Positions 2,554 through 31,423 are shown, counted from the first letter of the stretch. The stretch: 64,000 bases of DNA from Celerinatantimonas sp. MCCC 1A17872 (GCF_046054195.1 NZ_JBEQCS010000008.1:14090-78089), one strand, 5' to 3'. The notes: a model not told the origin generated them from the sequence alone. Program-made: numbers and translations.

Positions 2554-2702
2554 AGATAATAGGTGGAAAAACGCGCATACGCGTTTTTCCAGATGGTATA
2601 TTTAATAGAATGCTGATAAGTTCTTTTTATACAGATAGTTAACTGTGCGCGTTTTTACTGGCCAAACAAGATAAATGCGCATGCGCACTAATAAAATGTT
2701 AT
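2554..2702 (+). repeat. ~150-bp repeat, copy A. It contains two palindromes (AAAACGCGCATACGCGTTTT and AAATGCGCATGCGCACT) and ends in GTTATG.
   Basis: ~93% identical to 12870-13019. Both copies end 16-18 nt upstream of a cassette ORF start. Confidence 0.8.
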
Positions 2703-2718
2703 GCGTACTAGGAAATAA

Positions 2719-3048
2719 ATGGAATTACCTTCATACGAAAAAGATCATTATGAATTAGACAACGGAGAAGAAATTCACCGTGAATATCCTGATTCATTTT
2801 GGATCCCTGAGGCGGCCAAAAGAGAATCTCTAAAGCCTGGTGATATTGTTAAGCTTATTTTTCGCTTGGAAGAAACTAAAGGCTCGGATGAAATATCGGT
2901 TGAGCGCATGTGGGTGGAAGTAACAGAGGTAACCCCTCCTTTTTATAAAGGTACTTTAGACAATGACCCGATAGACAGTGATTGTGTAGTCTGCGGGCAG
3001 TCAGTTACTCTCAATCCATGCCATGTAATTGCAATTTATGAAGAATGA
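2719..3048 (+). CDS. Cassette-borne hypothetical protein, tentatively DUF2314-like
   Basis: 109-aa ORF followed directly by an attC site. The ERMWVEVTEV motif is reminiscent of DUF2314. Confidence 0.5.
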   Translation: MELPSYEKDHYELDNGEEIHREYPDSFWIPEAAKRESLKPGDIVKLIFRLEETKGSDEISVERMWVEVTEVTPPFYKGTLDNDPIDSDCVVCGQSVTLNPCHVIAIYEE

Positions 3049-3053: not shown

Positions 3054-3125
3054 ATAACAAGGCAAGGCAGCATCACACCTTTGGTGTTGGACTCGCTAAA
3101 GCTCGCCGCTGCTTGCGGCGTTATG
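3054..3125 (+). other. attC recombination site (integron cassette boundary)
   Basis: Starts with ATAACAA just after the stop codon and ends GGCGTTATGT. Carries internal imperfect inverted repeats. Confidence 0.55.
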
Positions 3126-3139
3126 TCGCAAGGTGATTT

Positions 3140-3409
3140 ATGGAATGGGCTCTTATCGAGGCTGAATTGATGGCAGCATTCGAATTACTGCCGAGCAATA
3201 CAGTAGAGTCTGATAACGGCTACAGAAAAGATGATTTCTTAGACCATATCAATGCAAATGAACTGCTGTTAGCTATGGAAGAGCTAGATGGGGTAATCGA
3301 AGATAATCCAAGCCCTTCTAAGGAGTTTTGGCATCACTTAATTAGTGCCTCAAAGCTGATGGGCAATATTCATCTAATCAAATATGAGTCCGTATTAAAT
3401 GCAACATAA
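3140..3409 (+). CDS. Cassette-borne hypothetical protein (89 aa)
   Basis: ORF bracketed by attC sites. No recognisable motif. Confidence 0.45.
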   Translation: MEWALIEAELMAAFELLPSNTVESDNGYRKDDFLDHINANELLLAMEELDGVIEDNPSPSKEFWHHLISASKLMGNIHLIKYESVLNAT

Positions 3410-3490
3410 CAAGCCGCTCAAATTCGTTCCGGCCACAAAAAGCGTGGCCTCCACCGGACTCGCCAACGCTCGCTGTTTAGCGGGGCATTA
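3406..3490 (+). other. attC site with a degenerate right end
   Basis: ATAACAA overlaps the stop codon. The right end GTTTAGCGGGGCATTAG is imperfect. Confidence 0.4.
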
Positions 3491-3498
3491 GAGGTCTT

Positions 3499-3789
3499 AT
3501 GGAGATCGTAGAATTTCATGGAGTAAGGTGTCTTGAAAAGCCGCTTGAGGATTGGCAGAAATTTGTATGCAAGCATCTTAAAGATATGGTTACCGACCCA
3601 GAGTGTGGAAAGCCATCGTCAGTAAATCGAGTGCTCCAAGATGGCAGTAGAACATCAGAGATTTTCTTAATAGTTAATGGTCCATTGCCAGACATTGAGT
3701 CGGGTACAAATTCACCTCTCATTAAAAAATCTGACCATATTGAGTGTGGCCAATGTTGGATTAACGTGTATGCATCAAAAAACCTCTAA
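3499..3789 (+). CDS. Cassette-borne hypothetical protein (96 aa)
   Basis: ORF between attC sites. Confidence 0.45.
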   Translation: MEIVEFHGVRCLEKPLEDWQKFVCKHLKDMVTDPECGKPSSVNRVLQDGSRTSEIFLIVNGPLPDIESGTNSPLIKKSDHIECGQCWINVYASKNL

Positions 3790-3870
3790 CAAAGCGTTGA
3801 AATCAGTCGCTGCGCTCCTTGGAACCTCCAAAAGCTACGCTTTTCCCGGCCCTTTAACACGGCGTTATAT
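3787..3870 (+). other. attC site
   Basis: TAACAAAGCG on the left and GGCGTTATAT on the right. Confidence 0.6.
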
Positions 3871-3882
3871 GTTGGAGAGTTA

Positions 3883-4287
3883 ATGCCACAATTAGAACAA
3901 ATATTGACGGAATGGCTTTCTAATAAATTAAGTGATTCAGAATATTATAAGTATCTTATTGACCATTGTAGTGAATGTGAAAGTAGATTCACACGAGGCA
4001 AGTTTTTACAGCTTAAACATTTTAATCGCGTAGTAGCTCGTGAAATTTTAGATGAGCTCGCACCTTGTGATTTTTGTAACAAGGAATTTACGATAGAGAA
4101 GCTTTTTTCATTACGCGATAATCCGAATTTTGAACTAATTAACAAACCAGATTTTGTTAATATTAGTTTTCCGTATTCAGGTGTAATGGGTCCAGAGCAA
4201 TATGCTCGATGTAAAAAATGTGGAAGTATACTTTTGTTTATCGCACCAGAACGGGAATTTAAAGGTTGGTGGGGTAAGGTGGGGTAA
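3883..4287 (+). CDS. Cassette-borne Cys-rich hypothetical protein (134 aa)
   Basis: ORF with CxxC…CxxC spacing (CSECE…CDFCN…CKKCG) followed by an attC site. Confidence 0.5.
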   Translation: MPQLEQILTEWLSNKLSDSEYYKYLIDHCSECESRFTRGKFLQLKHFNRVVAREILDELAPCDFCNKEFTIEKLFSLRDNPNFELINKPDFVNISFPYSGVMGPEQYARCKKCGSILLFIAPEREFKGWWGKVG

Positions 4288-4385
4288 AACATATAATAAA
4301 TCGCTGCAATTGACAAAATAACTGTCACGAATTTTGGTTCCCAAAATGTAGCGCCAGCTATTTTGCAACTGAGCTCAGCGTTAGG
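4285..4385 (+). other. attC site, family B (shared core …AATAACTGTCACGAATTTTGGTTCCCAAAATGTAGCGCCA…GCTCAGCGTTAG)
   Basis: Near-identical copies at 13452-13545 and 14102-14195. Ends GCGTTAGGG. Confidence 0.65.
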
Positions 4386-4393
4386 GCTCAGAT

Positions 4394-4723
4394 ATGAATC
4401 GAGCATTTGGGAAAGTATTCAAAAGCGAAAATGGCATTGGGTACGGCGTAATCAGAAAAACCAAGGAGCCATTTCCTGAAGTTTTATCGGCTTCGGAGGT
4501 CCTGGCCGAAGACGATTGTGGTAACTATTTGGTTTTACTAAATGATGCCGTTTGCTTCTGGGATCACGAAACAAATGAGATCGAGGTTCTTTCTAATTCA
4601 ATAGATGAATTCGTTTCAAGGTGCTCGACTCCAGAAGAAGTAGAACTAGAGCCAGGCCAAGTTGAATCGGCTTGGATAGACCCCAAGTTTGCGAAGAAAT
4701 TCGGCATCACGAGCAAGTCCTAA
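4394..4723 (+). CDS. Cassette protein, possibly SMI1/KNR4 (SUKH) immunity-like
   Basis: 109 aa with GNYLVLL…VCFWDHETNE, which resembles the SUKH C-terminal motif. Confidence 0.45.
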   Translation: MNRAFGKVFKSENGIGYGVIRKTKEPFPEVLSASEVLAEDDCGNYLVLLNDAVCFWDHETNEIEVLSNSIDEFVSRCSTPEEVELEPGQVESAWIDPKFAKKFGITSKS

Positions 4724-4755
4724 CAAACGCATTAAAGTGGGCGGAGCGTTATAAC
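4721..4755 (+). other. Very short (35 bp) attC-like site
   Basis: TAACAAACGC…GCGTTATAAC with only ~15 bp between the core motifs. Confidence 0.35.
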
Positions 4756-4760
4756 CCAAA

Positions 4761-5276
4761 ATGATCATTGAGCAAGCGCTAGAATTCCTAGGCAAACATC
4801 AGCCTTTGCCATCGGATGAAGAAATATCAGAAGCTGAGATTGATACTTTCAACGAAGTAAGAAAGTTCCTGATTTCAAACCCTGACGAACGTGCAATTCC
4901 TCTTGTACTAAATGCGTTTGGCGATGAAGACGGATTTGGCGTCTACCAGGTTTGTGATGACATATTTAGACCATTTAAACCTGAGGTTGTTTTACCTCAC
5001 TTAAAAAATGAATTGGCAAGTAAACATTACGGGGTTCGCTATTGGGCTGCCCAGTGGGCAATGGAAATCAATTCACTTGATATAGTTCCTGAAATAAACG
5101 CTATGCTAGCAACCCCGGAAGATACGGAGGCTCACTATTATTGTGTTGCCGCGCTCATGGATATATGGCAAAAGACAAAAAATCCGTTTGTGTCTAAGTC
5201 AATAATTGAATTAGGCGGTAAATCCAAGAATACAGATATCTCAGAGCTAATCGATGAACACAAAACACAAAAATAA
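4761..5276 (+). CDS. Cassette-borne hypothetical protein (171 aa)
   Basis: ORF followed by an attC site. Helical-repeat-like sequence. Confidence 0.5.
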   Translation: MIIEQALEFLGKHQPLPSDEEISEAEIDTFNEVRKFLISNPDERAIPLVLNAFGDEDGFGVYQVCDDIFRPFKPEVVLPHLKNELASKHYGVRYWAAQWAMEINSLDIVPEINAMLATPEDTEAHYYCVAALMDIWQKTKNPFVSKSIIELGGKSKNTDISELIDEHKTQK

Positions 5277-5280
5277 GGTT

Positions 5281-5334
5281 ATAACAAAGCAATGTTGCGG
5301 ACTCGCTCTGCTCGCGCGCAAATTGTGGCGTTAG
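5281..5334 (+). other. attC site
   Basis: ATAACAAAGC…GGCGTTAGTTG. Confidence 0.55.
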
Positions 5335-5739
5335 TTGTTAAAAAGTCCGGAGATATTAATGACGTCAAAAGAGGTAGTGATTTCATTTTGGGAAGCGATG
5401 AAATCCAATGATTTTACCAACGCTTGTGAATGGCTTTCCGAAGATTTTGAAGGTTTTTGGCCTCAGAGTTCCGAACTTATTGTTGGACGTAAAAATTTTA
5501 CAGCAATAAACAGTTATTATCCTGCAAACGGAAAATGGTTATTTGACATCAATTCTATAGTTTGTGAGGACAAAACGGTTGTAACGGATATATCAATCAC
5601 TGATGGTGAATTCAAAGCACGAGCAATAACATTTCACACAGTCGAAAATGATTTAATTAAGAAGCAAGTAGAATTTTGGCCAGAAGATTATCCAGCACCG
5701 GAGTGGCGCTCGAAATGGGTCAAAAGGGTAGAAGTGTGA
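5335..5739 (+). CDS. SnoaL/NTF2-like cassette protein
   Basis: The N-terminal pattern SKEVVISFWEAMKSNDF… is typical of the SnoaL_2/NTF2 fold. The ATG at 5359 is an alternative start. Confidence 0.5.
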   Translation: MLKSPEILMTSKEVVISFWEAMKSNDFTNACEWLSEDFEGFWPQSSELIVGRKNFTAINSYYPANGKWLFDINSIVCEDKTVVTDISITDGEFKARAITFHTVENDLIKKQVEFWPEDYPAPEWRSKWVKRVEV

Positions 5740-5747
5740 AATACAAC

Positions 5748-5850
5748 TAACAAAGCAAAACAATGGACGCTTAACGCTTCGGTGCTTGTTGTTTTAGGTT
5801 TTAAATGTGCTGTAACATTGGTGAAAGCGCCACTGTTTGCGGCGTTAAGT
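5748..5850 (+). other. attC site
   Basis: TAACAAAGC…GCGGCGTTAAGT. Confidence 0.55.
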
Positions 5851-5869
5851 TTTTCTTGAGTTGAAGTAG

Positions 5870-6229
5870 ATGAGCGAGCCATTTGATAGATCAATTCCTG
5901 GATACACAGAGCTGACGGATTGGCCTAAGCCACCGCTATATCCTGAAAAGATAACCGAAATATGTCTTTATCGAAATGGAGCGGTTGTTGTCGTAATACA
6001 TGGAGGTTTGAGCTTCAATTTTGAGCCAAGTCTTGGGCGCCTCTGTTATGGTGAGAGTCATAGAGACGAAAATGCTGCCTTTATTAAAAAGGACTCACCA
6101 TTCGAAGCGCAGCTATATGCTTATCTGGAAGCTGCGAGAAAGAAATTGAGTCATGAAGAGTTTTCTGTATCAGATATCAAGCTTTTCAATAATTGTTTTA
6201 GCAAAGCCAAGGTTTATTCTAGTGTGTAA
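5870..6229 (+). CDS. Cassette-borne hypothetical protein (119 aa)
   Basis: ORF between attC sites. Confidence 0.45.
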   Translation: MSEPFDRSIPGYTELTDWPKPPLYPEKITEICLYRNGAVVVVIHGGLSFNFEPSLGRLCYGESHRDENAAFIKKDSPFEAQLYAYLEAARKKLSHEEFSVSDIKLFNNCFSKAKVYSSV

Positions 6230-6328
6230 AAACAGAACAATACAATCAATACCCGCCAGCAAGTTGGCTCGGATCTCTGTTCCGGCGCGTCGCTCCTTCA
6301 CTACGGCCCGTTATTGTAGGCGTTAGCA
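6230..6328 (+). other. attC site
   Basis: Ends GTAGGCGTTAGCA. Confidence 0.45.
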
Positions 6329-6343
6329 GAATAGAAGGAATAT

Positions 6344-6775
6344 TTGATGTCAGTGGAAGAAGTGGTTAGAGGTTTTATTGAACAAGTAAGGTCTGGGAAA
6401 AATCCAGACTTAGTCAGCAAGTATCTAGCCCCAGTAGTTGTAGCGCATCAGATTGTTTCTGGAGTCTCAGAAGCAATTGAAAGAACACCTGAAAACTATC
6501 GTGAACATGTAGAAGAATTTTTAGAAGTTTACGGTCATTTCGAGCTCTCAATCGAAGAGTTTTTGGTTCAAGGTCAAAAGGTTTATGTGCGTTGGCGTCA
6601 AGACGGTCACCATGAAGGTGTAATTTATGGTTACGAGCCGACAGGTCTAGAACTTTCTACAGTAGGAAGCGCTGTGTACCGAGTTAGTGAAAATCAAATA
6701 GTGGAATATTGGATTCAACAAGAGAATCAAGGTTTACGAGAGCAGTTGGAAACCAACCTTAAGAAATTCAGCTAA
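6344..6775 (+). CDS. SnoaL-like ester-cyclase family protein
   Basis: EEVVRGFIEQV…YLAPVVVAHQ matches the ester cyclase/SnoaL N-terminal signature. Confidence 0.6.
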   Translation: MMSVEEVVRGFIEQVRSGKNPDLVSKYLAPVVVAHQIVSGVSEAIERTPENYREHVEEFLEVYGHFELSIEEFLVQGQKVYVRWRQDGHHEGVIYGYEPTGLELSTVGSAVYRVSENQIVEYWIQQENQGLREQLETNLKKFS

Positions 6776-6840
6776 CAAACGAGTATGTGTAGAGGCTTTT
6801 GTGTAGCGTCGTTACTCGCACAGTTAATTAGGTGTTAGCT
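6773..6840 (+). other. attC site
   Basis: TAACAAACG…GGTGTTAGCT. The internal TGTGTAGCGTCGTTACTCGCACAGTTAAT stretch recurs at 7799-7830. Confidence 0.55.
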
Positions 6841-6856
6841 TGCTCCCTTTGTGTAA

Positions 6857-7351
6857 TTAGCTCAAGCTGGCCCGAACATCTGCAATCGTGATAAATAACT
6901 TGTTTTCAGCATGTTGAAATGCAGTGAAGCCGTATTTCTCGTAAAAGTGCAATGCGCCATCTTTTGCGTCAACGATAACGACTGGAAAGGCTACAGTGTC
7001 ACTAGCTGTTAATAATTTACGAAGGGCATCAATGAGTAACCATTCGCCGAATCCTTGGCCTTTGTAGCGTTCATCAACGGCTAAACGGGCAATAAGTCCG
7101 CCAGACGTTGATGAATGGTGTTTTTTTTGAAGTTTGCTCGGTAAAGCTTTTAGATCAATTGGTGTCATGGTTAAGGTATAAAACCCAATAACTTTCGAGT
7201 TATCGGTTTCATCTTCCAGAACAAAGGTTCTGGTATTATCTTTTTTAGCTTGTTGACTGGCCATAACTTTCAGATAGTTATTGAGCGCGTTGATACCACA
7301 GTTGAATCGGTTTCTATCATGTTTAGCCTTGTCGAGAAGTACCGTATTCAT
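6857..7351 (-). CDS. GNAT-family acetyltransferase toxin (TacT/KacT-like), in an inverted cassette
   Basis: 164 aa with a GNAT fold (…FYEKYGFTAF…). Overlaps the upstream DUF1778 antitoxin gene by 4 bp. Confidence 0.7.
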   Translation of the reverse strand: MNTVLLDKAKHDRNRFNCGINALNNYLKVMASQQAKKDNTRTFVLEDETDNSKVIGFYTLTMTPIDLKALPSKLQKKHHSSTSGGLIARLAVDERYKGQGFGEWLLIDALRKLLTASDTVAFPVVIVDAKDGALHFYEKYGFTAFQHAENKLFITIADVRASLS

Positions 7352-7623
7352 TGTTGAGTTTTTCCTTCGTAGCGCTGGGCTGCCACTTTCAGTTTTGTAT
7401 TCGCTTTTGCTGGTTGGTCGAGAGCATCCATCAGTAACATAGCGTCAATTCTGCTTAGTTTGAGGGTTTCTTCACGCTCGATAACCTGTTTAGCTTTTTC
7501 AATGGCAGCGTTCAGTACAAAAGAATTAATGCTAGACATACCGGTAATGGCAGCGGCTGTAGTCAGTAAATCTTGTGTATCAACATCTACTCTGGCAGTG
7601 ATACGGGGTAATGTAGAGGCCAT
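7348..7623 (-). CDS. DUF1778 (RHH) antitoxin partnered with the GNAT toxin
   Basis: 91 aa preceding the GNAT gene. This is the typical type II TA arrangement seen in superintegron cassettes. Confidence 0.7.
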   Translation of the reverse strand: MASTLPRITARVDVDTQDLLTTAAAITGMSSINSFVLNAAIEKAKQVIEREETLKLSRIDAMLLMDALDQPAKANTKLKVAAQRYEGKTQQ

Positions 7624-7734
7624 AGTTTTCTCCTTTGTGTCAAAGTGTCACACAAAACATTATGGTATTAAAGTCAAAATTAATCAATAAAAGTGTCACT
7701 TTGGCACATAAATAACAAGTTGTTAAACCGTAAT

Positions 7735-7839
7735 TTGTAACGCGCGGTATTCTTGGTTTGCAGGTAATTTGGTTTTTATAAAGCTGTGTAGCAGCTTCTG
7801 TGTAGCGTCGTTACTCGCACAGTTAATTTGGCGTTATGC
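7735..7839 (+). other. attC site closing the inverted TA cassette
   Basis: Ends TTGGCGTTATGC and shares internal sequence with attC 6773-6840. Confidence 0.45.
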
Positions 7840-8541
7840 ATAAAAAAGAATAACCAAAATGATTAATGGTATTTTGAAAATTTCAGAAAGCATTTATATC
7901 TTGCTTAAATTCAGAACGAGAATTAAAACTGCCTAGTGATATTTTAAAATAATTAATTATTTATAATTAGTACTTTGCTTACGTAAATAAATTCGTTGCT
8001 CTCACTTGAGCATTATGGGCAATCAATCAGTGTATTAGCTGATTGTTTTTTATTGATAACAACAATATTAGCAGGATATTTAGCCTGTTACTTCATGCCG
8101 TGAAACTATAATGATTCGCCATTTCTCTAATCTAATTCTGAGGGTTAACTCAATATTTATTTCGTGTTGGAAGCATCTAATAGTGGCTATGACAGTAAGC
8201 ATGAAATACCTGTTGCCACAGCTTTGAAATGAAACTCTAAGCTATACGTAACCTGCCTGTTCGAAGAGGAAAAAAGTGGACAATCAGGAGTTTTAATTAG
8301 ATTTATATTGATAGATTTGTCTGTATTTAAAGGTTGGCTAAAAAAGAATATAAGTAAAAAACTGCTGAAGATGTTTTTTTCTAGGAATTAGTTATGAACT
8401 GGGCAAATAAAGTCTGAATTAAAATTATAAAAGAAAGTATTTCATATAATTGTCTGCATCTGTATATTACACTAATTAGTAGCCAGTCTTGTCATTGTAA
8501 TATATTATCGAGCTGATTTTTCGTAATGGACTATAACTGAG

Positions 8542-9789
8542 TTGTATATGGATGACGTTTTATCTTCTTGCCTAAATGCTGAAGGAATGTCAGCACAATG
8601 CGTTTATGACAAAATTAATCAAGAGCTAGAAACCGATGGTGATCGGTATAAGGATCTTGGTAGTTTTACTGCTGTACAAATGAATCCTCAAGCCCGTCAG
8701 TTGGTGATGGATAATATGGGTATCAACCTCATCAACCAAAACGAGTTTCCGCAAACAACTAAAATTCACCAGATCTTAGTAACCACATTAGCCACGCTAC
8801 TGCATGCGCCAGATCAACAGCAAGTGACGGGATGTTCGACATCTGGATCGTCTGAAGCTTGTGCGATTGCCATGGTGGCCCATAAAGGTCGCTGGAAAGA
8901 ACGTGCGGCATTGACGGATAGACCCAATATCGTTTTAGGTTCGAATGCGCATTTATGCTGGCGAAAATTTGCCACTTATTTCGATATTGAAGTTCGGGAA
9001 GTGGTATTTAAAGATTTTAATCAGTATCCACTCGAAGATATGTTATCCCTGGTGGACCAAAACACTATCTGTGTTGTTGCCGTTATGGGATCAACCTATA
9101 CAGGGTTCTGTGAACCGATCAAGGCTATTAATGATGGACTAACTGAGCTTAATCAGCGTCATGGCTGGAATGTTGGTATTCATGTCGATGCTGCTACTGG
9201 CGGCTTTATCCGTCCGTTTATAGATGACTCATCTTTACCTGACTGGGATTTTACTTTACCGCTGGTCCAGTCTATTAATTTGTCCGGGCATAAATATGGT
9301 TTGGTTTATCCCGGTATAGGCTGGTTAATATTGCGGGACGAGACCATTTTGCCCGACAAAATGAATATGACCGCCAGTTATTTAACTGGGGAGACTCAGT
9401 CTTTTGCTATTACTTTTTCTCGTTCATCCGCTTTAGTTATTGCCCAATATTTTAATTTTCTCTTTTATGGCATCGCAGGTTATAAGGCTGTGATAGCAAA
9501 TTGTCTAAAACATGCCAAACAACTAACGTCAGTGTTGAATAAATTAGATGGCATTAAAGTGATTAGCGAACAGACATTGCCAATAGTTGCTTTTTTACTA
9601 GAAGATGATACCGGTGAGTTGTCAGAGACATTTACCGCGCAACTTAAACAAAAAGGTTGGTTGATTCCCTGCTATATGATGCCAAGCAATATTAAACAGA
9701 AAGTAATGCGAATTGTCATTCGGGAAGATATGACAAATGCCCGTCTGGACGAATTAATTCAGGATATTTGTGAGGTACATGCCAGATGA
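8542..9789 (+). CDS. Group II PLP-dependent decarboxylase, glutamate decarboxylase (GadB)-like
   Basis: The NLSGHKYGLVYPGIGWLILRD block parallels GadB [21 protein letters not shown], and the C-terminal half aligns colinearly with GadB. Preceded by 700 bp of AT-rich non-coding DNA. Confidence 0.75.
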   Translation: MYMDDVLSSCLNAEGMSAQCVYDKINQELETDGDRYKDLGSFTAVQMNPQARQLVMDNMGINLINQNEFPQTTKIHQILVTTLATLLHAPDQQQVTGCSTSGSSEACAIAMVAHKGRWKERAALTDRPNIVLGSNAHLCWRKFATYFDIEVREVVFKDFNQYPLEDMLSLVDQNTICVVAVMGSTYTGFCEPIKAINDGLTELNQRHGWNVGIHVDAATGGFIRPFIDDSSLPDWDFTLPLVQSINLSGHKYGLVYPGIGWLILRDETILPDKMNMTASYLTGETQSFAITFSRSSALVIAQYFNFLFYGIAGYKAVIANCLKHAKQLTSVLNKLDGIKVISEQTLPIVAFLLEDDTGELSETFTAQLKQKGWLIPCYMMPSNIKQKVMRIVIREDMTNARLDELIQDICEVHAR

Positions 9790-9838
9790 ATGTTGTTTTG
9801 TGTTTGACCAAAGGATTGGGAATTGGGGCATATTGGAT

Positions 9839-11224
9839 ATGAAGAGTAACAAAAAAACAAATATGGGAATATTTCGTCCCCACCCAAAAATCGAAGCTAT
9901 ATTGTTGTCTTGCGTAATTGTATCACTGGTCGGATGTTTGTCTTTTCTTATCTATAGTAAGTCCAGTTCGGTATTAAAAAATGAAATTAAATTAGGTTTA
10001 TTGTCTAATGTTTCAGCTGCGGCAACAACGATTAACGGGGATTTGCACCGAACATTTAATAAAAATACTTCGCGGCAAGATCCTAATTATCTCGCCGTGG
10101 CAAACTCATTAGAGAAAATCAGGGAAGCCTCTCATAATGTTCGTTATATCTATACGAATATTTTAAAAGGGGGCAAGGTCTATTTTGTGGTAAATCCTAG
10201 TCCACAAAATGATAACGATGGCGATGGTGTACCCGATTTAGCTCCCGCGCTGATGGAACAGTATGAGAACCCTGCTCCGGAATTAGTTCAAGCCCTAAAA
10301 GACCATAAAAGTGTAGTGACCAGTCCATATCAGGATAGTTGGGGCCGATTTATCAGTGGTTATGCTCCTTTTTATGATTCTCAGGGGCGTTTTGTTGGCG
10401 TGCTGGGGATGGATTTGCAACTAAATGACTTTGATCAGCGGATGCACCCTATCACACTGATTTTTGAGAAAACCGCTATTATTGTCTTTTTTGTTGGCTT
10501 GATTGTTGGCCTACTGACTTGGTTTTCAAGACGTTATACGGGCTCTATTCTTTTAGATAATCAAAAACTTACCAGTAATCAAACCCACTTTGAACAGTAT
10601 TTACAATCAGAAACGGGGCATTACCGTCAAGTCATAGAGGCAATTGGGCAAAAAGTGAAGTCAATGCCTTTAACAGAGACAACTCAGGTTCAAGATATCG
10701 AGCAATGGATATCAGCCTGGAATAACTATTTTCAATCTAGCCAAAGCAAGATATTCAGTGAGGACAATTTTCATCTGGATAGTATGCTCAACCATATTGC
10801 ACTAGCAACGAGTGATGTCGTTGCGCTTGATATCAATCAAGAACCCTCGGTCCCCAATTATTTTTACGGCAGTTCTGCGCAATATGAGACGCTATTAAGC
10901 GAATTAGTGAAGGCTCTGCATATTCTTCATGTTGACCGGGAAGTGATGCAACTATTTGTCAGACTAGAAAATGAGCTGGTGGAGGAAGTCAGTTTAGCTA
11001 TCTCTGTCTGTGTAGCAAAAGATGGGGTATCGAGCTGTCAGGCACCTGTCTTTACGCCCGATTTTTCTTTTGCTGAGACTTATAGTGTCCAGCAGATCCA
11101 GTTTTTCAGTACTGTTGCCAGGATAGAAGAATTGGGAGCAAGTATTGATTGGATTGATGACAAGACACAACAAGGATATCAGCTGACCTTTTCTGTCAGT
11201 AAATACAGGGAAGTCGAGCAATGA
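9839..11224 (+). CDS. Membrane sensor with a periplasmic Cache-like domain and an uncharacterised cytoplasmic domain
   Basis: Two TM segments flank a domain carrying the dCache-like motif GYAPFYDSQGRFVGVLGMDL. The ~230-aa C-terminal region has no HAMP, MCP, kinase or GGDEF motif. Start is uncertain; the ORF opens at 9770. Confidence 0.6.
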   Translation: MKSNKKTNMGIFRPHPKIEAILLSCVIVSLVGCLSFLIYSKSSSVLKNEIKLGLLSNVSAAATTINGDLHRTFNKNTSRQDPNYLAVANSLEKIREASHNVRYIYTNILKGGKVYFVVNPSPQNDNDGDGVPDLAPALMEQYENPAPELVQALKDHKSVVTSPYQDSWGRFISGYAPFYDSQGRFVGVLGMDLQLNDFDQRMHPITLIFEKTAIIVFFVGLIVGLLTWFSRRYTGSILLDNQKLTSNQTHFEQYLQSETGHYRQVIEAIGQKVKSMPLTETTQVQDIEQWISAWNNYFQSSQSKIFSEDNFHLDSMLNHIALATSDVVALDINQEPSVPNYFYGSSAQYETLLSELVKALHILHVDREVMQLFVRLENELVEEVSLAISVCVAKDGVSSCQAPVFTPDFSFAETYSVQQIQFFSTVARIEELGASIDWIDDKTQQGYQLTFSVSKYREVEQ

Positions 11225-12360
11225 GGAAGATAGCCCCTTTTATTTTGGTACTAGCCGCATTTGGGATACAACTTTCTTCGGGGATCAACTACATCACTTT
11301 CCCGTTGATTCTGCAATCGCAAGGGGTGAACAATTCCATGATTGGTTTGATTATGTCCTGTGACATTTTCGCCCTGATCGTGTTTTCACAGCGAATTTCT
11401 GTGGTTGTAAAAAAGTTGGGAGTACTGAATTCCATCATTATTTGTTCGGTTGTTCGAAGTGTGGTGGTCTATTTCTTATCTGCAAATCATATGGTTATCG
11501 GCTGGGTTTTAGGAATGTTTGCTTATGGCCTGATGACCAATGCATTATTGGTGATAGTGCAAACCTGGCTAAATCTGATGTCTGCAGGAAAAATCAAAGG
11601 GCTGATCATGGGCCTGTTTTCATCTTGTTTATCTCTGGGCATTGCGATGGCACCTATTGCAATACGGTTTATCGATATGACCAGTCAACAACCATTTTAC
11701 CTGAGTAGTGTGATATCGCTTCTGGTGTTAGTGGTGATGATCTCGGTTATCTCGACACGTCCCAGTTTTCATTCAGACAAAAAGGCTCGGATCGTATTTG
11801 TATTCAAACATTCAAAAATTATCATGTTATCGGCAGTGGTTGGTGGGTTCTGTTTTTTTGGATTACCGTCGTTTTTAACGATTTACGGGATAAAAAATGG
11901 TTTATCACCAGAAAATGCTGCGCTGTTACTGACCATGTTTATGTTGGGTAGTGTCACACTTGGTTTGTTGGTCAGTACATTGTCCGCGTTTATTAATCAT
12001 TATCAGCTTATTTTTGTTTGTGTATGTTTATCTGTTGTATGTGCATCTTTTCTTTCTTTATCAATTTACGCCAATCTGGGTGTGGCTTTGGGATTGCTCT
12101 ATCTGTGGGGCGGTTGTATGGGAGGAATATATGCGCTTGGACTTAATGTGGTGGGTGAGCAGTTTCGCCGTGAAGATCAAATGTCAGCCAACATGACTTA
12201 CACCATGATGGATGCTATCGGTGGTGTGATTGGTTTGTGTATTATTGGCACCAGTATGGATTGGGTGGGTAGTGAAGGGCTTTCTTATACCATTGTTGTG
12301 GCATCCATGCTTTATCTGATTTTTGTTTTCCGCCAACTAGCTCAGCGATTTACTTATTAA
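11221..12360 (+). CDS. MFS transporter
   Basis: 379 aa with ~12 hydrophobic segments. Overlaps the sensor gene by 4 bp. Confidence 0.75.
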   Translation: MRKIAPFILVLAAFGIQLSSGINYITFPLILQSQGVNNSMIGLIMSCDIFALIVFSQRISVVVKKLGVLNSIIICSVVRSVVVYFLSANHMVIGWVLGMFAYGLMTNALLVIVQTWLNLMSAGKIKGLIMGLFSSCLSLGIAMAPIAIRFIDMTSQQPFYLSSVISLLVLVVMISVISTRPSFHSDKKARIVFVFKHSKIIMLSAVVGGFCFFGLPSFLTIYGIKNGLSPENAALLLTMFMLGSVTLGLLVSTLSAFINHYQLIFVCVCLSVVCASFLSLSIYANLGVALGLLYLWGGCMGGIYALGLNVVGEQFRREDQMSANMTYTMMDAIGGVIGLCIIGTSMDWVGSEGLSYTIVVASMLYLIFVFRQLAQRFTY

Positions 12361-12485
12361 GTCTGCAACGGTTAAAGAGCACTGCGTTTCAATATCGGTT
12401 TGTTGCAATTGGTGATAACTGTTTTAATAAAGCTTGAGTTTTTAATTAAAATTGTGACGGATTGAATAAACAAATTTAAATAAAA

Positions 12486-12513
12486 AAGCGAACCACATGG
12501 TTCGCTTTTTTAT
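12486..12513 (+). terminator. Rho-independent terminator of the decarboxylase-sensor-MFS operon
   Basis: AGCGAACC-ACAT-GGTTCGCT followed by TTTTTTAT. Confidence 0.65.
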
Positions 12514-12869
12514 TTCGCTTGTCTCAATTTTATTTTTTGGCAAAAAAGTTAACTATTGTATAACATCTTTCGTTTGCATTGTTTCACAGTGATATTTATG
12601 GTGAAAGTGAATGAATACCTTAATCCAATATAGGTAGGTTTTTTCTGTTCTAATGCTGTAACCACGCATACGCATTTCTTCCTGAAGACCTTTCAGAAAT
12701 GGGCTTTTTAGACTCATAATAACTCCTTACCTCATGATGCTGTATATATGCACAGTGTTATTTGAGATTCTCGGATATCAAGGGAAACAGTGAAAAATTT
12801 TTGCGCGTTTATACATGAACAAATTCATATTATTTATGTTTATTAACAAGTTATGTGTTTTCGATTTGA

Positions 12870-13019
12870 GATAATAGGTTCGGAAAACGCGCATGCGCGT
12901 TTTCCCAGATAGTATATTTAATAGAATGCTGATAAGTTCTTTTTATACAGATAGTTAACTGTGCGCGTTTTTACTGGTCCAACAAGATAAATGCGCATGC
13001 ACACTAATAAAATGTTATG
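12870..13019 (+). repeat. ~150-bp palindrome-bearing repeat, copy B
   Basis: See copy A at 2554-2702. Ends GTTATG 16 nt before the GTG start of the next ORF. Confidence 0.8.
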
Positions 13020-13035: not shown

Positions 13036-13455
13036 GTGACTCAACAAAAACCAGAAGATTTTGTGAGTGAATATAAAGATATAGATTTTGGGAAACTGAA
13101 GTTGTATCGGGTCGAAGGCGCAAATATAACTCCGCCTACGCCATCTAAAAATGTAATTTCAACTGCTCTTTACAGAGGTTATATAGCTGAATACAAACTA
13201 ACTAAAGATGGGACACTTATCCTTTTGAGTTATAGTTATCCTACAAGCCGTAAAGAGTATAAAACGGATGCTGTAAATGAGATAGTGCATGGCGATTTTT
13301 CATTGGAGTTTAGAGAATCATTCTTTGGTACAAAAACCATTGTACCATTTCATAATGGCAAAATAGTTATTGATAAAAGCCAGTGGCGCATTATAGAAAA
13401 GTCTGGTTTAAACCCAGTTGAAATGATATTAAATAAATCAGAGAAAAAAACATAA
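13036..13455 (+). CDS. Cassette-borne hypothetical protein (139 aa, GTG start)
   Basis: AGGAGAG RBS 6 nt upstream of the GTG. Followed by a family-B attC. Confidence 0.5.
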   Translation: MTQQKPEDFVSEYKDIDFGKLKLYRVEGANITPPTPSKNVISTALYRGYIAEYKLTKDGTLILLSYSYPTSRKEYKTDAVNEIVHGDFSLEFRESFFGTKTIVPFHNGKIVIDKSQWRIIEKSGLNPVEMILNKSEKKT

Positions 13456-13545
13456 CAAATCGCTTCAATTGATAAAATAACTGTTACGAATTTTGCTTCG
13501 CAAAATATAGTGCCAGCTATTTTGCAACTGAGCTCAGCGTTAGAA
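13452..13545 (+). other. attC site (family B)
   Basis: ATAACAAATCGCTTCAATTGATAAAATAACTGTTACG…GCGTTAGAAG. Confidence 0.65.
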
Positions 13546-13564: not shown

Positions 13565-14104
13565 ATGAACTGGCTTGAATTTAAAAAAATATCAGAAAGA
13601 GAATTTAAATATATAGAGCTTGAAGGTGGACTTTTCGGATACCAGATGCAGCCTGGAACAAAGTGGAATAAAGGGTTATCTGATGATCAAATTAGAAAGC
13701 TAGAAGACAAATTTGGCTTTAAATTATCAAATGATTATCGAGATTTTATTAAAGTGATGAATGGAATTGATACTGAGCTTATATCAATTGATCCGTTTGA
13801 ATTAGAAGATGATTCATATTCTCAGCTGTACTATGAATACCCGAAAGATTGCGAACGGATATCAGCGTTACTTGAAGAAATTGATAAATTTAAAGAATGT
13901 ATAGATGAAGTGTTAACTGATGCGGGGTTTAGCGTTAGTGACATCGAGGGATATGTTCCAACTTATGCGCATAGGTCTCTCGTTGTCTTCAAGGACAAGT
14001 CGCTATCACCTGTGATTTCAGTTTGGGGTAGCGATGTCGTTGTGTTGGCGGAAAACTTAGAAGAATATTGGATTAAAGAATTGGGATTAGAATATTGTTT
14101 CTAA
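13565..14104 (+). CDS. SMI1/KNR4 (SUKH-1) family immunity-like protein
   Basis: LSDDQIRKLEDKFGFKLSNDYRDFIKVMNG is the classic SUKH N-terminal motif. Confidence 0.65.
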   Translation: MNWLEFKKISEREFKYIELEGGLFGYQMQPGTKWNKGLSDDQIRKLEDKFGFKLSNDYRDFIKVMNGIDTELISIDPFELEDDSYSQLYYEYPKDCERISALLEEIDKFKECIDEVLTDAGFSVSDIEGYVPTYAHRSLVVFKDKSLSPVISVWGSDVVVLAENLEEYWIKELGLEYCF

Positions 14105-14195
14105 CAAATCGCAGCAATTGACAAAAATACATGTCACGAATTTTGGTTCCCAAAATGTAGCGCCATATATTTTTGCAACGATGCTCAGCGTTATA
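14102..14195 (+). other. attC site (family B)
   Basis: TAACAAATCGCAGCAATTGACAAAAATACATGTCACG…GCGTTATAC. Confidence 0.65.
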
Positions 14196-16280: not shown

Positions 16281-18311
16281 TCAGTCGATTCTGAATCGAT
16301 CGATTTTCTCTTTCATCATTCGCATCACCTGCTCAAGTTGGTCTCCAGTATTTTCTAGTTGTCCGGAACGATTTGCCGTTTGAACGGATACATCACTGAT
16401 GGTGTTCATATTCCTATCAATTTCATTAGCAACCACTCCTAGCTGTTCTGAGGCACTGGCAATTTGTTCATTCATCTGAGTAATGGTGCCTACGGCGGCT
16501 TTGATCCCGCTGAGAGATTCATCCACTAAACTGACTTTTTCAACGCTGTTCTGGGCTAATGTTGCGGTACGCCCAATGACATTGACCGCTTGGCTAGAGC
16601 CTTCTTGCAGTGCTGAAATAATGTTGTTGATCTGTTGGGTCGATTCCTGTGTTCGTTGCGCCAGAGAGCGTACTTCATCTGCTACAACGGCAAAGCCTCT
16701 GCCTTGTTCTCCGGCGCGAGCAGCTTCGATTGCGGCATTCAACGCCAATAGATTGGTTTGTTCAGCAATCGCTCGAATCACTTCTACTACCGAGCCAACC
16801 TGTTCACTTTGTCCGTTGAGTGTTTCGATTGCCTGATGGACGTGATTTACTTCATCTGCCAGATTTTGAATGGTATTCACGGTATCTTGAACCAGACGGC
16901 GCCCATTTTCTGTAAGGGTGTCGGCCTGTTCTGCTGCATTGGCAGCTTCCTGAGCATTTTGTGCCACATCGTTAACGGTACTGGACATTTCCGTCATAGC
17001 CGTTGCTGCTTGTGTCGTTTCAGATTTTTGCAGCTCAATATCCTTTTGTGTTTCTTTCGAAACGTTGATGATGTCAACTACTGCTGTTTGTGCCTGACGG
17101 TTAGAAACCGAAACATCGGCAATGAGTGTTTTCAGTTTCAAATTCATTTGATTGAGTGACTGACTGAGTTGACCAATTTCATCTTTACTATTGACGGTGA
17201 TGACGGTGGTCAGATCCCCCTGAGACACGGTATTTGAAAACGTCAGTGCACGATTAATCTCCGCCACCATTCGTGAGGAAAGCCATATAGCAACCGAGAT
17301 GCTAATGAGTGCCGAGATGGCGATGAGTATAGAAAGATTCATCATCGCGGAACTTCGCTTGTCATTAATTTCTTGCATAGCTTGCGCCATCGAGGTCTGC
17401 ACATTGGTTTCCGCTTTATCGGCTTGACTGATAAAGCGCTCAAATGCAGTATCAAAGCCAGCATCGGAGTTGGCGGTATTAATTTTTTGTGTGTTGTAAT
17501 TATTAAATCGTTTTTCGGTGACAGAAATGAAAGTGGTTATCTGGCGAATGAGTTCAGCTTTATTTATTTGAGAGGTCTCTTGCGCTGTTTGAATCGCTTG
17601 GGCTGCATCTTGAAAATTCTTCAGGATATTTTCAATGTGGTTCTCTTCATCACCGGAAAGTAATTCTTCCAAAAACAAATGACCATTTGCCAGCAGGTAA
17701 CGTGCATTACCTAACTGTTCCAGATTGCGCATCAATCCTTGATTGAGCGATTGATTGGTCCAGGTCATCAGAGCAGACTGAAGCGTTTCATAAAGTTGAT
17801 CAAACTTCTGATCTTCGCCGCTACCGGCGGACATTGAGTTAGCAAAATTCGAATAACGTTGTTCGGCCATTTGCTTAAACACATCGATATTTTTGATCAC
17901 TTCGTTGAGGGAGTCTCTGACGTTGGGATCCTGACTGGCAAAAAAGATTCCTTCGTCATTTTTTCCGCCGTCAAGAACGGCTGTGGCATACCAGCGAGAT
18001 TGTTTTAGTAATGACCAGACTTCATTAATATCTTCAGCTTTGTCGCCACTGACAATTTCTTCAAATTTCAGGTGTGCCTCTGTCGCCAGTAATTTTATTT
18101 CCATCGTTGCATCTACTTGTGGTGCAAACACGACACCGGCTTGCTTGCCTGCTTCACCTATTTGGTGAACATACTTTAATCCCCAGAATCCACAGTTCAG
18201 GGTCAGTAATACCATGAGCAAGGAGAATAAAAGGAATTTTGCGCGAAGCGAATGAAAGAACATTCCGCTAGAAGCGGAAGTGGAACTGCTGATTGTTGAA
18301 GAAGCCACCAT
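16281..18311 (-). CDS. Methyl-accepting chemotaxis protein with a large helical periplasmic sensor
   Basis: Two TM segments, a HAMP domain and the MCP signalling domain (…[35 protein letters not shown]…). Confidence 0.85.
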
Positions 18312-29270: not shown

Positions 29271-30875
29271 TTAATTTGCCAATCTTTGCACTTGTTCCCA
29301 ACGAATTCCAAATTTAGCTAAATACTTTTGCAAACGAGATGAGTCGTTATGGCTGGCTTTGCGGGTGCGGCTCACATCGAATAAGGCTCGTCCAGCTGAT
29401 GCAAGTGAGCTTTGGTTCGCGCAGACACTTAGCACATATTCAAGTTGGTGGCGATCAAAGCTATCTAGCGATGCAAGCGTTTCATCGCTTAGTAACTGCA
29501 CCGCTAAGGATACTGATTTTGTAGTATTTGGTTGCCAGTCAGCGCTCAGGCGTTGGGTTTCTTCATGCACATCACTTAGCGCAATTCGTGACGAATCAGC
29601 CAATGTGCAAAGCCGAGTAATGGATGAGCCTAAATCGCGAAAATTTCCGCGCCAAGTCGCATTAGCTGAATAGGCAAAGTTAAGGTAGGCGGTGCGAGCT
29701 TCTTTATTAAAGCGAATTTTGTTGCCATGTTTTTGGCTAAATTTTTGTAATTCAAATTCAATATTGGCTTCAATATCTTCTTTTCTGTCTTTAAGCCCCG
29801 GCAGTTCATAACTCCACAGATTAATTCGGGCGAGTAAATCTTCGCGAAACTCACCCTTATTCACTGCTAATTTCAAGTCACGATTGGTTCCGGCAATTAG
29901 CTGAAAATTACTTTGAATTTCTTTATCGCTGCCCACTGGATGAAATGACTTATTCTCAATCGCTCGCAGCAACATTGCTTGCTCTTCAAGGCCTAATTCT
30001 CCAACCTCATCTAAAAATAATAAGCCATTATCAGCTGCTTTTAAGAAACCTCCGCGAGCAGTGGCAGCTCCTGTAAACGCACCTTTGGTGTGTCCGAATA
30101 ATGCCGCCATCGCGTTTTCACCTTTTAAGGTGGCGCAGTTTACGGTAATTAACTCGCCTGTAAGGGCGGCGCGTTTTTTCTTCAGTTGATAAATACGTCC
30201 AGCTAGCTGACTTTTCCCGGCACCCGTTGGCCCCGTGAGTAAAATAGGGGCGTCAGAGCGAATCGCCACTTTTTCGATCTGGGCAATCATGGTGTTAAAC
30301 GCCGCACTTCGAGTAGCAATCCCACCTTTTAGAAAGTCGGTGCCGTGTTCGTGTTCAGCATCAAAACGGGTTGCTAGCTGATCGTATTTAGATAGATCCA
30401 GATCGATGATCTGAGTCCGCCCTTTGGCTTTGTCTTCTTGTGAGCTATCTGGCGATGTTTGAATTAATCGCCCCGGGAAATGGTGGCTTTCAGTGAGCAA
30501 AAAGCAGCAAATCTGAGCCACATGAGTCCCAGTGGTGATATGAAACAGGTAGTCATTTCGGTCAATATCAAACTCCAGGACCGAGCAAAAGTCATATAAC
30601 TTGGCATAGACTTCACCAAAATCCCAAGGGTCTGCAAAATCAATGCAGTGCAGTGTGACTTTTGTTTGTGCTGAGATGGTCTCAATATCCACCGCAACAT
30701 TATTGGCTAGGTGCCAGCTTGCATCAGGATAAATCAGATGTAACTCGTCAATCATAAGCGAGTCTTGGCTGACCAGAGAAATATTGGGACGCCATCTTTG
30801 CCAGCGTTTTTTGCCTCGTCCAACCGAATCAAGTTGAGTCCCTAACAGACTCACCACCACCGTTTTTTTAACCAA
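29271..30875 (-). CDS. rtcR: Sigma-54-dependent RNA-repair transcriptional activator RtcR
   Basis: N-terminus MVKKTVVVSLLGTQLD…RWRPNISL parallels the E. coli RtcR CARF-like domain. Has an AAA+ sigma54 domain (GPTGAGKS…GAFTGA) and a C-terminal HTH. 534 aa versus 532 aa in E. coli. Confidence 0.85.
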   Translation of the reverse strand: MVKKTVVVSLLGTQLDSVGRGKKRWQRWRPNISLVSQDSLMIDELHLIYPDASWHLANNVAVDIETISAQTKVTLHCIDFADPWDFGEVYAKLYDFCSVLEFDIDRNDYLFHITTGTHVAQICCFLLTESHHFPGRLIQTSPDSSQEDKAKGRTQIIDLDLSKYDQLATRFDAEHEHGTDFLKGGIATRSAAFNTMIAQIEKVAIRSDAPILLTGPTGAGKSQLAGRIYQLKKKRAALTGELITVNCATLKGENAMAALFGHTKGAFTGAATARGGFLKAADNGLLFLDEVGELGLEEQAMLLRAIENKSFHPVGSDKEIQSNFQLIAGTNRDLKLAVNKGEFREDLLARINLWSYELPGLKDRKEDIEANIEFELQKFSQKHGNKIRFNKEARTAYLNFAYSANATWRGNFRDLGSSITRLCTLADSSRIALSDVHEETQRLSADWQPNTTKSVSLAVQLLSDETLASLDSFDRHQLEYVLSVCANQSSLASAGRALFDVSRTRKASHNDSSRLQKYLAKFGIRWEQVQRLAN

Positions 30876-31026
30876 TTCAATCTATCCAAATAGATATATT
30901 TATATCTTTATTTCATCATTTAACTGTTTTTTCTGCAATTAAAAAATAGCCTTAGAAATTAAATTTAAAAAAATAACCAAATAAAAACAAATTGTTAAAA
31001 ATAAATTTTAATTTTTCATCTGCGTT

Positions 31027-31042
31027 TGGCACGTCACTTGTA
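31027..31042 (+). promoter_or_regulatory. Candidate sigma-54 promoter for the SPFH-rtcB operon
   Basis: TGGCAC-N5-TTGTA, with GG at -24 and GT instead of GC at -12. Sits ~150 bp from the rtcR start and is preceded by an A/T-tract-rich region. Confidence 0.5.
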
Positions 31043-31134
31043 ATAGTTAAATTGTTGTAATTGTTCGGAGTGTTTCGAAATAGCACCCTGGTGCGATAGG
31101 CTCTGCCTAAATCGTATGCCAGATTACAGCGTGA

Positions 31135-31187
31135 TTTTAAGTCTCGGTCGGCGAGATGTTTGGGTTCGATTCCCAACTTAAAAACCA
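31135..31187 (+). ncRNA. tRNA-like minihelix element 1: acceptor stem, hairpin, canonical T-arm and ACCA
   Basis: TTTTAAG pairs with CTTAAAA. TCTCG-GTCGG-CGAGA hairpin. T-arm TTGGG-TTCGATT-CCCAA. Ends A-CCA. No D-arm or anticodon arm. Confidence 0.45.
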
Positions 31188-31257: not shown

Positions 31258-31423
31258 ATAGAAAAATCGGTGTGAAAGTCGTTATTACCGCTGGTTGGAT
31301 ATCGCTTTTTAATAGCGGGTTATGGCAAGCAGGATAGCTCCCCATAACACAAGTTAATCAGCCATTTTCAATCAAGTCATTAACATTTCACACCATCCCG
31401 TTTGGGATAATGAGGAAAATAAG

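Follow-up and report, generated by a model that had tools for sequence, protein, structure and literature searches.

Within a 64,000-nt stretch of the genome of Celerinatantimonas sp. MCCC 1A17872 (GCF_046054195.1, NZ_JBEQCS010000008.1:14090-78089; hereafter the window), three adjacent genes encode an enzyme of the glutamate decarboxylase (GAD) family, a membrane protein with a Cache (PDC) sensor domain and a transporter of the major facilitator superfamily (MFS). Sequence comparison identifies this unit as a derivative of the ELIC-type operon, which consists of genes for a pyridoxal phosphate (PLP)-dependent decarboxylase, a pentameric ligand-gated channel, a Cache protein with a pseudokinase tail and an MFS protein, and from which the channel gene has here been lost. 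The unit is the channel-less form of a little-studied but widespread operon type, the best-known member of which houses ELIC. Although ELIC is a heavily studied structural model for human neurotransmitter receptors, no paper in the literature that we found establishes its role for the bacterium. Our analysis places ELIC in a modular gene set made up of an amine-making enzyme, the channel, the Cache-pseudokinase protein and the MFS transporter, reveals a conserved Cache-pseudokinase/MFS pair and opens the biology of prokaryotic ligand-gated channels to experiment. In the window the channel has been lost through a natural deletion that was kept under selection, and this case helps to show what ELIC-type operons do.

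An ELIC-type operon with a deleted channel gene

The Dickeya (loci L002-4 of our survey) and Cohaesibacter (L001) operons consist of genes for a decarboxylase, a Neur_chan_LBD protein, a PDC protein and an MFS transporter, in this order. The channel of the Dickeya operon is ELIC itself (705 bits to PDB 2yn6) and that of Cohaesibacter is an ELIC homologue (251 bits). The unit in the window likewise has a PLP decarboxylase gene upstream of the PDC-pseudokinase gene, with which the MFS gene overlaps, and the channel gene between the decarboxylase and PDC genes is represented only by a remnant of about 45 nt. This remnant was identified by comparison with the metagenome contigs L089 and L090, which encode the nearest relatives of the GAD (83% amino acid identity) and carry a gene for a 350-aa channel between the GAD and PDC genes. 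In a blastn alignment, positions 558-1799 of L089 corresponded to 8539-9780 of the window and positions 2872-3001 to 9801-9930, while the 1.07 kb in between (L089 1800-2871), which holds the channel gene, was absent from the window. What is left is the 3' end of the channel gene, directly before the PDC start codon. Because this scar lies directly upstream, the true start of the PDC gene is 9839.

The identical scar was found on another metagenome contig, L085, which has 86% nucleotide identity with the window. Comparison of the two gave dN/dS ratios of 0.07 for the MFS protein and 0.21 for the PDC protein (0.14 for its sensor and 0.27 for its cytoplasmic part). The common scar and the low ratios lead us to conclude that the three-gene form predates the split of the two lineages and has been kept by selection, and the ratios argue for purifying selection on the three remaining genes. 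One could also regard the unit as a decaying, non-functional remnant on its way to loss, as the channel gene has been deleted, the neighbouring integron integrase gene is truncated, the upstream region is not conserved and no promoter was demonstrated. We consider this hardly credible: all three open reading frames (ORFs) are intact, the same three-gene form persists in the second lineage under the constraint just described, and channel-less three-gene and two-gene forms are common in other phyla.

The operon type was surveyed in 84 fetched loci plus the window, with one genome per species scanned. Genes for PDC proteins with a pseudokinase tail were immediately followed by an MFS gene in 28 of 29 entries (a number that includes the window and repeated records of two species), in most of them with a 4-nt overlap or a 3-nt gap, whereas almost none of the PDC proteins fused to a true kinase or to SpoIIE had an MFS gene directly downstream. 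Given this adjacency, and its near absence with a real kinase or phosphatase output, the constant core of the gene set is the translationally coupled Cache-pseudokinase/MFS pair, while the decarboxylase is interchangeable and the channel optional. The complete set of GAD, channel, Cache-pseudokinase and MFS occurs in Cohaesibacter, Aquimarina and Flavobacteriaceae, and Dickeya, Vibrio and Celerinatantimonas YJH-8 have a histidine-decarboxylase-like enzyme in the place of the GAD. A true histidine decarboxylase (394 bits against a cut-off of 305) is combined with the pair and a Cache-SpoIIE phosphatase in Lentisphaerae and Desulfatirhabdiaceae, and one with the pair and a distant channel is present in Cyanobacteria. 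Riflebacteria and others have the Cache-pseudokinase and MFS genes only, several metagenome-assembled genomes (Psychrosphaera, Chlorobiaceae, Lysobacteraceae, Alteromonadaceae) a short Cache protein with the MFS, and Flavobacterium johnsoniae only GAD and channel.

Some of these variants differ in further respects. The Cache-SpoIIE/PP2C protein, encoded after the MFS gene at L012:10620-12176, L016:10516-12102 and in L076, carries the same Cache sensor, and in Lentisphaerae and Desulfatirhabdiaceae it is an alternative receiver in the place of the channel. In the cyanobacterial loci L017 and L019-L021 (~10.6-12.2 kb) the distant pentameric-channel homologue of ~415 aa is encoded after the MFS gene and not before the Cache gene. 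The F. johnsoniae locus (L088:6001-8300) comprises a gene for a short GAD that keeps Asp at the position of E. coli GadB (EcGadB) Asp86, discussed below, and then the channel gene, without Cache and MFS genes. Genes for a phage-type integrase, a resolvase and a T5orf172 protein adjoin the Cohaesibacter operon (L001:14744-17359), and the situation at L087:12709-13353 is similar. These mobile-element neighbours, together with differing flanks in L085, L086 and L089, suggest that the module travels on genomic islands.

The Dickeya operon shares its gene order with the window and three of its four genes are homologous to those of the unit. Identity is 54% for its PDC sensor by tblastn (~60% when the sensor domains are aligned) and 42% for its MFS protein, and its PDC and MFS genes overlap as they do in the window. 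It keeps the channel where the window has the scar, and its decarboxylase is not orthologous to the TIGR01788 GAD of the window. The uncharacterised four-gene operons of Cohaesibacter, Aquimarina and Flavobacteriaceae have decarboxylases from the same GAD clade as the window enzyme, with Asn at the Asp86 position; in Cohaesibacter the identities are 57% for GAD, 45% for the full-length PDC protein and 77% for MFS. They retain an ELIC homologue between the GAD and PDC genes, which the window lacks.

Zimmermann and Dutzler (2011) noticed a decarboxylase beside ELIC, annotated as a glutamate decarboxylase, and took it as an argument for gamma-aminobutyric acid (GABA) as ligand; in that study the natural ligand was unknown and the channel was gated by primary amines (PMC3119659). 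Tasneem et al. (2005) reported a Cache neighbour in Rhodopseudomonas only. When we searched the literature for a description at the operon level, the decarboxylase remark of 2011 was all that was found, with nothing on the PDC and MFS genes. In our hands the Dickeya decarboxylase (L002:5604-6974, Dickeya dianthicola) reached 193 bits with NF002748, a histidine decarboxylase model that has a cut-off of 305, and no match to the GAD model was listed at E<=1e-5. The natural agonist of ELIC in Dickeya may therefore be a compound other than GABA. A decarboxylase similar to the Dickeya case was also seen beside the channel in L010, L008 and L013-L015.

The Cache-pseudokinase protein and its MFS partner

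A preliminary description of the window, made from the sequence alone, had noted a periplasmic Cache-like domain with a GVLGMDL motif, and this assignment could be verified. The protein is identical to one recorded for Celerinatantimonas sp. MCCC 1A17872. PF22673 (PDC/Cache) matched aa 174-221 of the 484-aa ORF, a segment that covers GVLGMDL, with 27.6 bits at a cut-off of 27, and the sensor (aa 40-205), when modelled separately, gave a PDC fold with a pLDDT of 90.8 that lies between two transmembrane (TM) helices. Foldseek matched the sensor to the amino-acid and amine receptor modules of Tlp3, PctC with GABA bound, Mlp24, Mlp37 and TlpA, and further to Methanosarcina kinase sensors, single-Cache formate and citrate sensors and dCache_1 and sCache domains. 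With the dCache_1 receptors (PctC with GABA, Tlp3, Mlp24, PctD and the dCache_1AM class) it has in common the fold of the ligand module and the amino-group Asp. It differs from them in that it has a single PDC module, contains a 28-residue loop with the motif NPSPQNDNDGDGxPD, lacks an RxWY motif and is coupled to a pseudokinase instead of a methyl-accepting chemotaxis protein, kinase or cyclase output. The NPSPQNDNDGDGxPD loop (aa 119-133, window 10193-10237) is invariant, of the DxDxDG type and kept in all pseudokinase-type members.

The Asp of GMDL is invariant in the family. In an alignment to Mlp24 (E=0.16) this residue coincides with the Asp of Mlp24 that contacts the amino group, and the carboxylate-binding RPWY of Mlp24 falls on APEL of the single-module domain, such that Arg is matched by Ala. 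Amine sensors have been described with such a pattern, the Asp kept and the Arg lost (PMC10104139), which suggests that the ligand of the sensor may be an amine. Across operons with a GAD, a histidine-decarboxylase-like enzyme or a true histidine decarboxylase the sensors are 54-73% identical, and the cytoplasmic parts can barely be aligned. By analogy with the pharmacology of ELIC (PMC3119659), such conservation would fit a generic primary amine as ligand.

The cytoplasmic part had been described as lacking any recognisable signalling output. As far as domain searches go this holds, since no Pfam or NCBIfam model matched the last ~230 aa of the Cache protein, and a single-sequence search of 1.84 billion representatives with the cytoplasmic domain alone returned only four matches. 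The structural comparison, in contrast, revealed a histidine-kinase fold. In the AlphaFold2 model of the full protein (pLDDT 88.8) a long helix is followed by a second one and by an alpha/beta domain, which corresponds to a DHp hairpin with an alpha/beta ATPase fold after it. The top Foldseek matches were histidine kinases only (WalK, 4e-12; YF1, plant phytochrome, GacS, RetS, ZraS, CpxA and HK853), with E values from 4e-12 to 1e-7 for WalK, GacS, RetS, CpxA and HK853. A profile of the family matched GacS with E=8.7e-5, and hhalign against relatives that share the sensor and have true kinase domains gave a probability of 96%. A match of this part of the protein to a known but degenerate domain had been named in the preliminary description as an outcome that would tell against its proposal, and the agreement of the model with histidine kinases is such a match.

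The module is degenerate in its kinase motifs. On DHp helix 1, no column has His in more than 5 of the 35 family members, so that a phospho-acceptor is missing; the Asn of the N-box aligns to Ala, and the G1 (DxGxG) and G2 (GxGxG) positions are not conserved. In the C-terminal half, invariance is limited to E379 and K455. The cytoplasmic domain is therefore a degenerate histidine-kinase module, a pseudokinase.

The MFS protein matched PF07690 with 117.5 bits over residues 9-338, which spans its whole length. TM11 contains an invariant Asp331, and TM2 has either Asp or Glu at position 48; acidic residues at these places would fit a cationic substrate or proton coupling. A sequence comparison of the protein with solved structures gave no match. 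Kinase-type membrane sensors that are encoded beside a partner transporter, as in the window, are known from UhpB-UhpC, DcuS-DctA and BceS-BceAB, and UhpC is itself an MFS protein. In these systems the kinase is active and the output runs through a response regulator, whereas the kinase of the window is dead and no regulator is linked. For this reason, information in the pair of the window probably flows from the sensor to the transporter.

A different output must be weighed, in which the Cache-pseudokinase acts as a RetS-like modulator, pairs through its DHp-like helices with an unlinked active kinase or with a second Cache-MFS module in its own genome and thereby alters gene expression, the MFS protein working independently. 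RetS acts by heterodimerising with GacS (PDB 7n0e), and both proteins are among the best structural and profile matches of the domain. The window protein has its DHp plus CA fold in common with Pseudomonas RetS and with the histidine-kinase-related domain found in plant phytochromes, two kinase folds that have given up canonical kinase activity, and in all of them the output presumably occurs by protein contact. Relatives with true kinase domains (P0069-P0076) carry the same sensor, the genome that contains the window encodes a paralogous Cache protein (P0048) and a paralogous MFS protein (P0131) on one 312-kb contig, and the operons of Vibrio and Celerinatantimonas YJH-8 are followed by histidine-kinase genes at a distance of 2-3 kb downstream. 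However, the window protein has no receiver domains, has lost the His and all ATP boxes, is linked to a transporter gene and has no known kinase partner. Neither a kinase gene beside the unit nor a response regulator gene within it or its flanks was found in the window. The very fast evolution of the cytoplasmic domain, with its two invariant residues and four database matches, argues against a conserved housekeeping kinase as partner, and the gene to which that of the Cache protein is strictly adjacent and translationally coupled is the MFS gene. We therefore judge a RetS-like role to be unlikely.

The decarboxylase and the proposed function of the unit

That the decarboxylase is GAD-like was recognised at the outset and is borne out by 436.4 bits on TIGR01788 (cut-off 380.4) and a match to PF00282. 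Its best solved relatives are Arabidopsis AtGAD1 (3hbx, 323 bits), the GAD of Lactobacillus brevis and E. coli GadB (1pmm, 233 bits). The equivalents of the catalytic residues K276 (the PLP Lys in the SGHK motif), H275, D243, T212 and R422 are all kept. In EcGadB, Asp86 faces the gamma-carboxylate of the substrate, and above pH 5.5 the active site is closed off by a C-terminal tail with His465. The Asp86 position is occupied by Asn in the window enzyme and its 25 nearest homologues, whereas Asp is found there in canonical GADs, in 92 of the 120 homologues listed and in the three solved GADs of the alignment. The window enzyme ends 11 residues past EcGadB position 437 without a His at the aligned 465 position, and the 25 nearest homologues also end before the His465 tail; many of these are encoded on contigs equal in size to those with the Cache and MFS homologues.

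The engineered variant GadB_D86N-H465A is active at pH 7-8 with improved release of GABA, and with the same D-to-N change a Bacteroides GAD also accepted Asp, cysteine sulfinate and homocysteate (2026 study, PMC12961736). Judged by its residues, the clade of the window enzyme is a natural counterpart of the engineered neutral-pH GAD, and a natural clade with both of the engineered changes may be of use in biocatalysis.

These features bear directly on acid resistance, which had been among the functions suggested for the unit. In that classic system the decarboxylase consumes protons at low pH and the transporter swaps glutamate for GABA, and the presence of a GAD above the TIGR01788 cut-off and of a transporter gene in the same operon would be in keeping with it. 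The E. coli GadA/GadB-GadC system and the window indeed have in common the PLP GAD fold, the catalytic residues and the linkage of a transporter gene to the enzyme gene. Yet the two features that confine EcGadB to a pH below 6 are both absent from the window enzyme, in which Asn replaces Asp86 and the His465 tail is missing; its N-terminus is also shorter. The linked transporter is, as had been stated before, an MFS protein and not a GadC-type APC antiporter, the operon contains a Cache-pseudokinase gene, the relatives link it to an amine-gated channel, and the operon family occurs in bacteria from marine, plant-associated and freshwater settings. Since the Asn and the missing tail make classic acid resistance improbable, we attach very little weight to this suggestion.

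Instead, we propose that the unit serves the synthesis and export of a GABA-like amine at neutral pH, a proposal which in our estimation is as apt to be right as wrong. The cytoplasmic decarboxylase would convert glutamate to GABA at neutral pH, or another acidic amino acid to an omega-amine such as beta-alanine or hypotaurine, and the MFS protein would export the amine. The Cache domain of the partner protein would detect the amine in the periplasm. As the kinase-like module is unable to phosphorylate, it would signal by protein contact, most likely onto the MFS protein of the overlapping gene, and the result would be feedback control of amine secretion.

The same genes could also support an energy-yielding or pH-buffering decarboxylation cycle, with the MFS protein as an electrogenic exchanger that takes up glutamate and releases GABA and with the Cache domain sensing the external substrate amino acid rather than the product and switching the exchanger on. 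The combination of decarboxylase and transporter is that of known proton-motive pathways (GadB/GadC, HdcA/HdcP, Oxc/OxlT), and OxlT is an MFS exchanger for oxalate and formate. Some decarboxylase precedes the Cache-MFS pair in ~25 loci, the nearest structural relatives of the sensor include amino-acid receptors, and a neutral-pH GAD would let the cycle run without acid stress. On the other hand, the sensor lacks the carboxylate-binding Arg, as far as the weak alignment to Mlp24 shows, and it keeps the 54-73% identity given above between operons for which glutamate and histidine would be the substrates, a degree of conservation that sits badly with the sensing of a specific substrate. That relatives link the pair to a channel responsive to primary amines speaks for the product as the signal, and in about a dozen Cache-MFS loci a decarboxylase is missing from the ~4.5 kb upstream and the ~3.5 kb downstream. 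We regard an exchange cycle as possible but rather improbable.

Several points weigh against the export and feedback proposal as well. The Mlp24 alignment from which the ligand argument is drawn does not by itself reach statistical significance, and the conservation of the sensor across GAD and histidine-decarboxylase operons could also reflect a ligand that has nothing to do with the amine. The invariant NPSPQNDNDGDGxPD loop resembles a Ca2+ site, so that the domain may bind Ca2+ or have some other non-amine role. By analogy with the broadened substrates of the Bacteroides GAD, the product may be a compound other than GABA, and the EcGadB numbering was cross-checked only via the three solved GADs, all of which have Asp at the position in question. 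None of 55 MFS homologues was fused to a Cache domain, so that gene adjacency is what speaks for a contact between the Cache and MFS proteins.

The pairing of the two genes invites a tentative extension of the feedback proposal, for which we would claim some plausibility at best. The Cache-pseudokinase/MFS pair could be a sensor-transporter complex and the core of a transmitter-like module, in which an amine is made at neutral pH, released and read outside by the Cache domain. Fuller versions would add an ELIC-type receptor or a Cache-PP2C protein, the purpose would be autocrine or population-level signalling, and the window would hold the channel-less version. If this is true, the core of synthesis, release and sensing works without the channel.

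Boundaries of the unit and its integron context

The positions of the unit and of the adjoining features are given in Table 1. All three ORFs are intact and run in the same direction, and the ATG of the MFS gene overlaps the stop codon of the Cache gene as ATGA. The preliminary description had listed these three genes with an AT-rich upstream region of about 700 bp and a strong terminator, and had treated the decarboxylase, sensor and transporter as one functional unit. Each of these elements was found at the place given there, and the functional association is backed by a gene order that is kept in many genomes.

Table 1. Features of the three-gene unit and its surroundings, in window coordinates
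Feature	Position	Strand	Basis or remark
136-nt attI-side repeat, other copy, 96% identical	2568-2703	+	ends GTTATGC
attC of preceding toxin-antitoxin cassette, left boundary of unit	7712-7840	+	core-site reading
AT-rich leader, presumed promoter region	7841-8538	+	GC profile
GAD-family PLP decarboxylase gene, 413 aa	8548-9789	+	TIGR01788, PF00282
Channel-gene deletion scar (last ~14 codons of pentameric ligand-gated ion channel gene)	9795-9838	+	blastn vs L089
Cache/PDC protein gene, two TM, 461 aa	9839-11224	+	PF22673, AlphaFold2, Foldseek
Cache/PDC sensor (periplasmic, between TM1 and TM2)	9956-10453	+	
Degenerate histidine-kinase module (cytoplasmic, DHp plus CA fold, after TM2)	10523-11221	+	
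MFS transporter gene, 379 aa	11221-12360	+	PF07690
Bidirectional intrinsic terminator, 18-bp perfect stem	12478-12515	.	T-runs on both sides
Integron integrase gene stub, first ~58 codons	12535-12717	-	PF13495 E=1e-14, TIGR02249
Integrase-promoter and attI-side region; second cassette run follows	12718-13019	+	ends GTTATGT
136-nt attI-side repeat, copy within 12718-13019	12884-13019	+	ends GTTATGT

The region upstream of the decarboxylase measures 707 bp (7841-8547), has ~32% GC and holds short ORFs only. Homology of the unit to its relatives spans 8539 to 12410, and similarity to the nearest relative, L089, begins only at 8539. The AT-rich leader and the junction with the integrase gene intI are therefore specific to this genome, the leader being not conserved. 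Promoter-like sites were no commoner in the AT-rich region than in shuffled sequence (14 against 18.8 expected), none stood out above chance, and a promoter of its own is therefore undemonstrated for the unit. A search of the unit against Rfam yielded no RNA element, and a search for repeats inside it nothing meaningful apart from the terminator. The flanks of the relatives differ and include genes for a HAD-like hydrolase, a homocysteine-methyltransferase-like fragment, an FAD oxidase and phage-type integrases (the latter in L001 and L087).

On its left side the unit is bounded by the attC of a toxin-antitoxin cassette, which encodes a GNAT toxin (6857-7351) and a TacA antitoxin (7348-7623), both on the minus strand and assigned by Pfam. 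This attC begins with ATAACAAG and ends with GGCGTTATGC, as do the other attC sites of that run. The start of 7836 given earlier for the unit falls inside its R' core (GTTATGC, 7834-7840). A first search for attC that demanded ungapped pairing of the stem found none, and intergenic reading together with a core-site pattern was then used. The pattern gave 12 matches on the plus strand against 4 expected. By this approach the genuine attC sites are intergenic stretches within 3054-7840 and from 13452 to ~19100, with xTAACAAR at the start and GGCGTTAxxx at the end. No attC-like site was detected between 7841 and 13019, in agreement with the earlier statement that none lies between the unit and the next repeat.

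The unit had been thought to be inserted within the cassette array. Instead, it is followed by a truncated intI gene, in which a stop codon interrupts the frame at codon 55 and the rest of which is deleted; tblastn of the whole window with the integrase gave a single match (12711-12475), with recognisable similarity ending near 12535. The region beyond it contains one copy of a 136-nt attI-side repeat. The other copy lies directly after gcvP and heads the first cassette run without an integrase gene, and weaker similarity between the two copies extends from 2484 and 12797. The overall order is thus gcvP, repeat, ~ten cassettes, unit, intI stub, repeat and more cassettes. Because the intI stub and the attI-side repeat follow the unit, it lies at the edge, on the integrase side, of a second cassette run and is not an insertion inside one continuous array. 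A giant gene cassette was ruled out, as no attC is present at the 3' end of the unit, which is also anything but compact (4.7 kb, three genes, a 0.7-kb leader and its own terminator). The "150-bp repeat" that had been noted beyond the unit is not an attC but the 136-nt attI-side segment that heads both runs.

Candidate origins of this layout are an attI x attC integration of a circle that carried the unit, or a duplication followed by deletions. As no intact integrase is encoded within the 64 kb, the array is probably fixed in its present state, barring an integrase that acts in trans. The attC sites at 4286-4384, 13445-13543 and 14101-14194 are ~90% identical to each other, the remaining sites being diverse, which suggests either a recent cassette duplication or a common source of cassettes for both runs. 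Another oversized gene that is not cassette-like, for a methyl-accepting chemotaxis protein of 676 aa, sits amid attC-bearing cassettes on the minus strand at 16281-18311. Farther along in the window, a tRNA-Cys(GCA) gene (31186-31257) is situated between rtcR on the minus strand and a Band7/SPFH gene followed by rtcB, and the whole region (29271-33852) is an RNA-repair operon headed by a tRNA gene.

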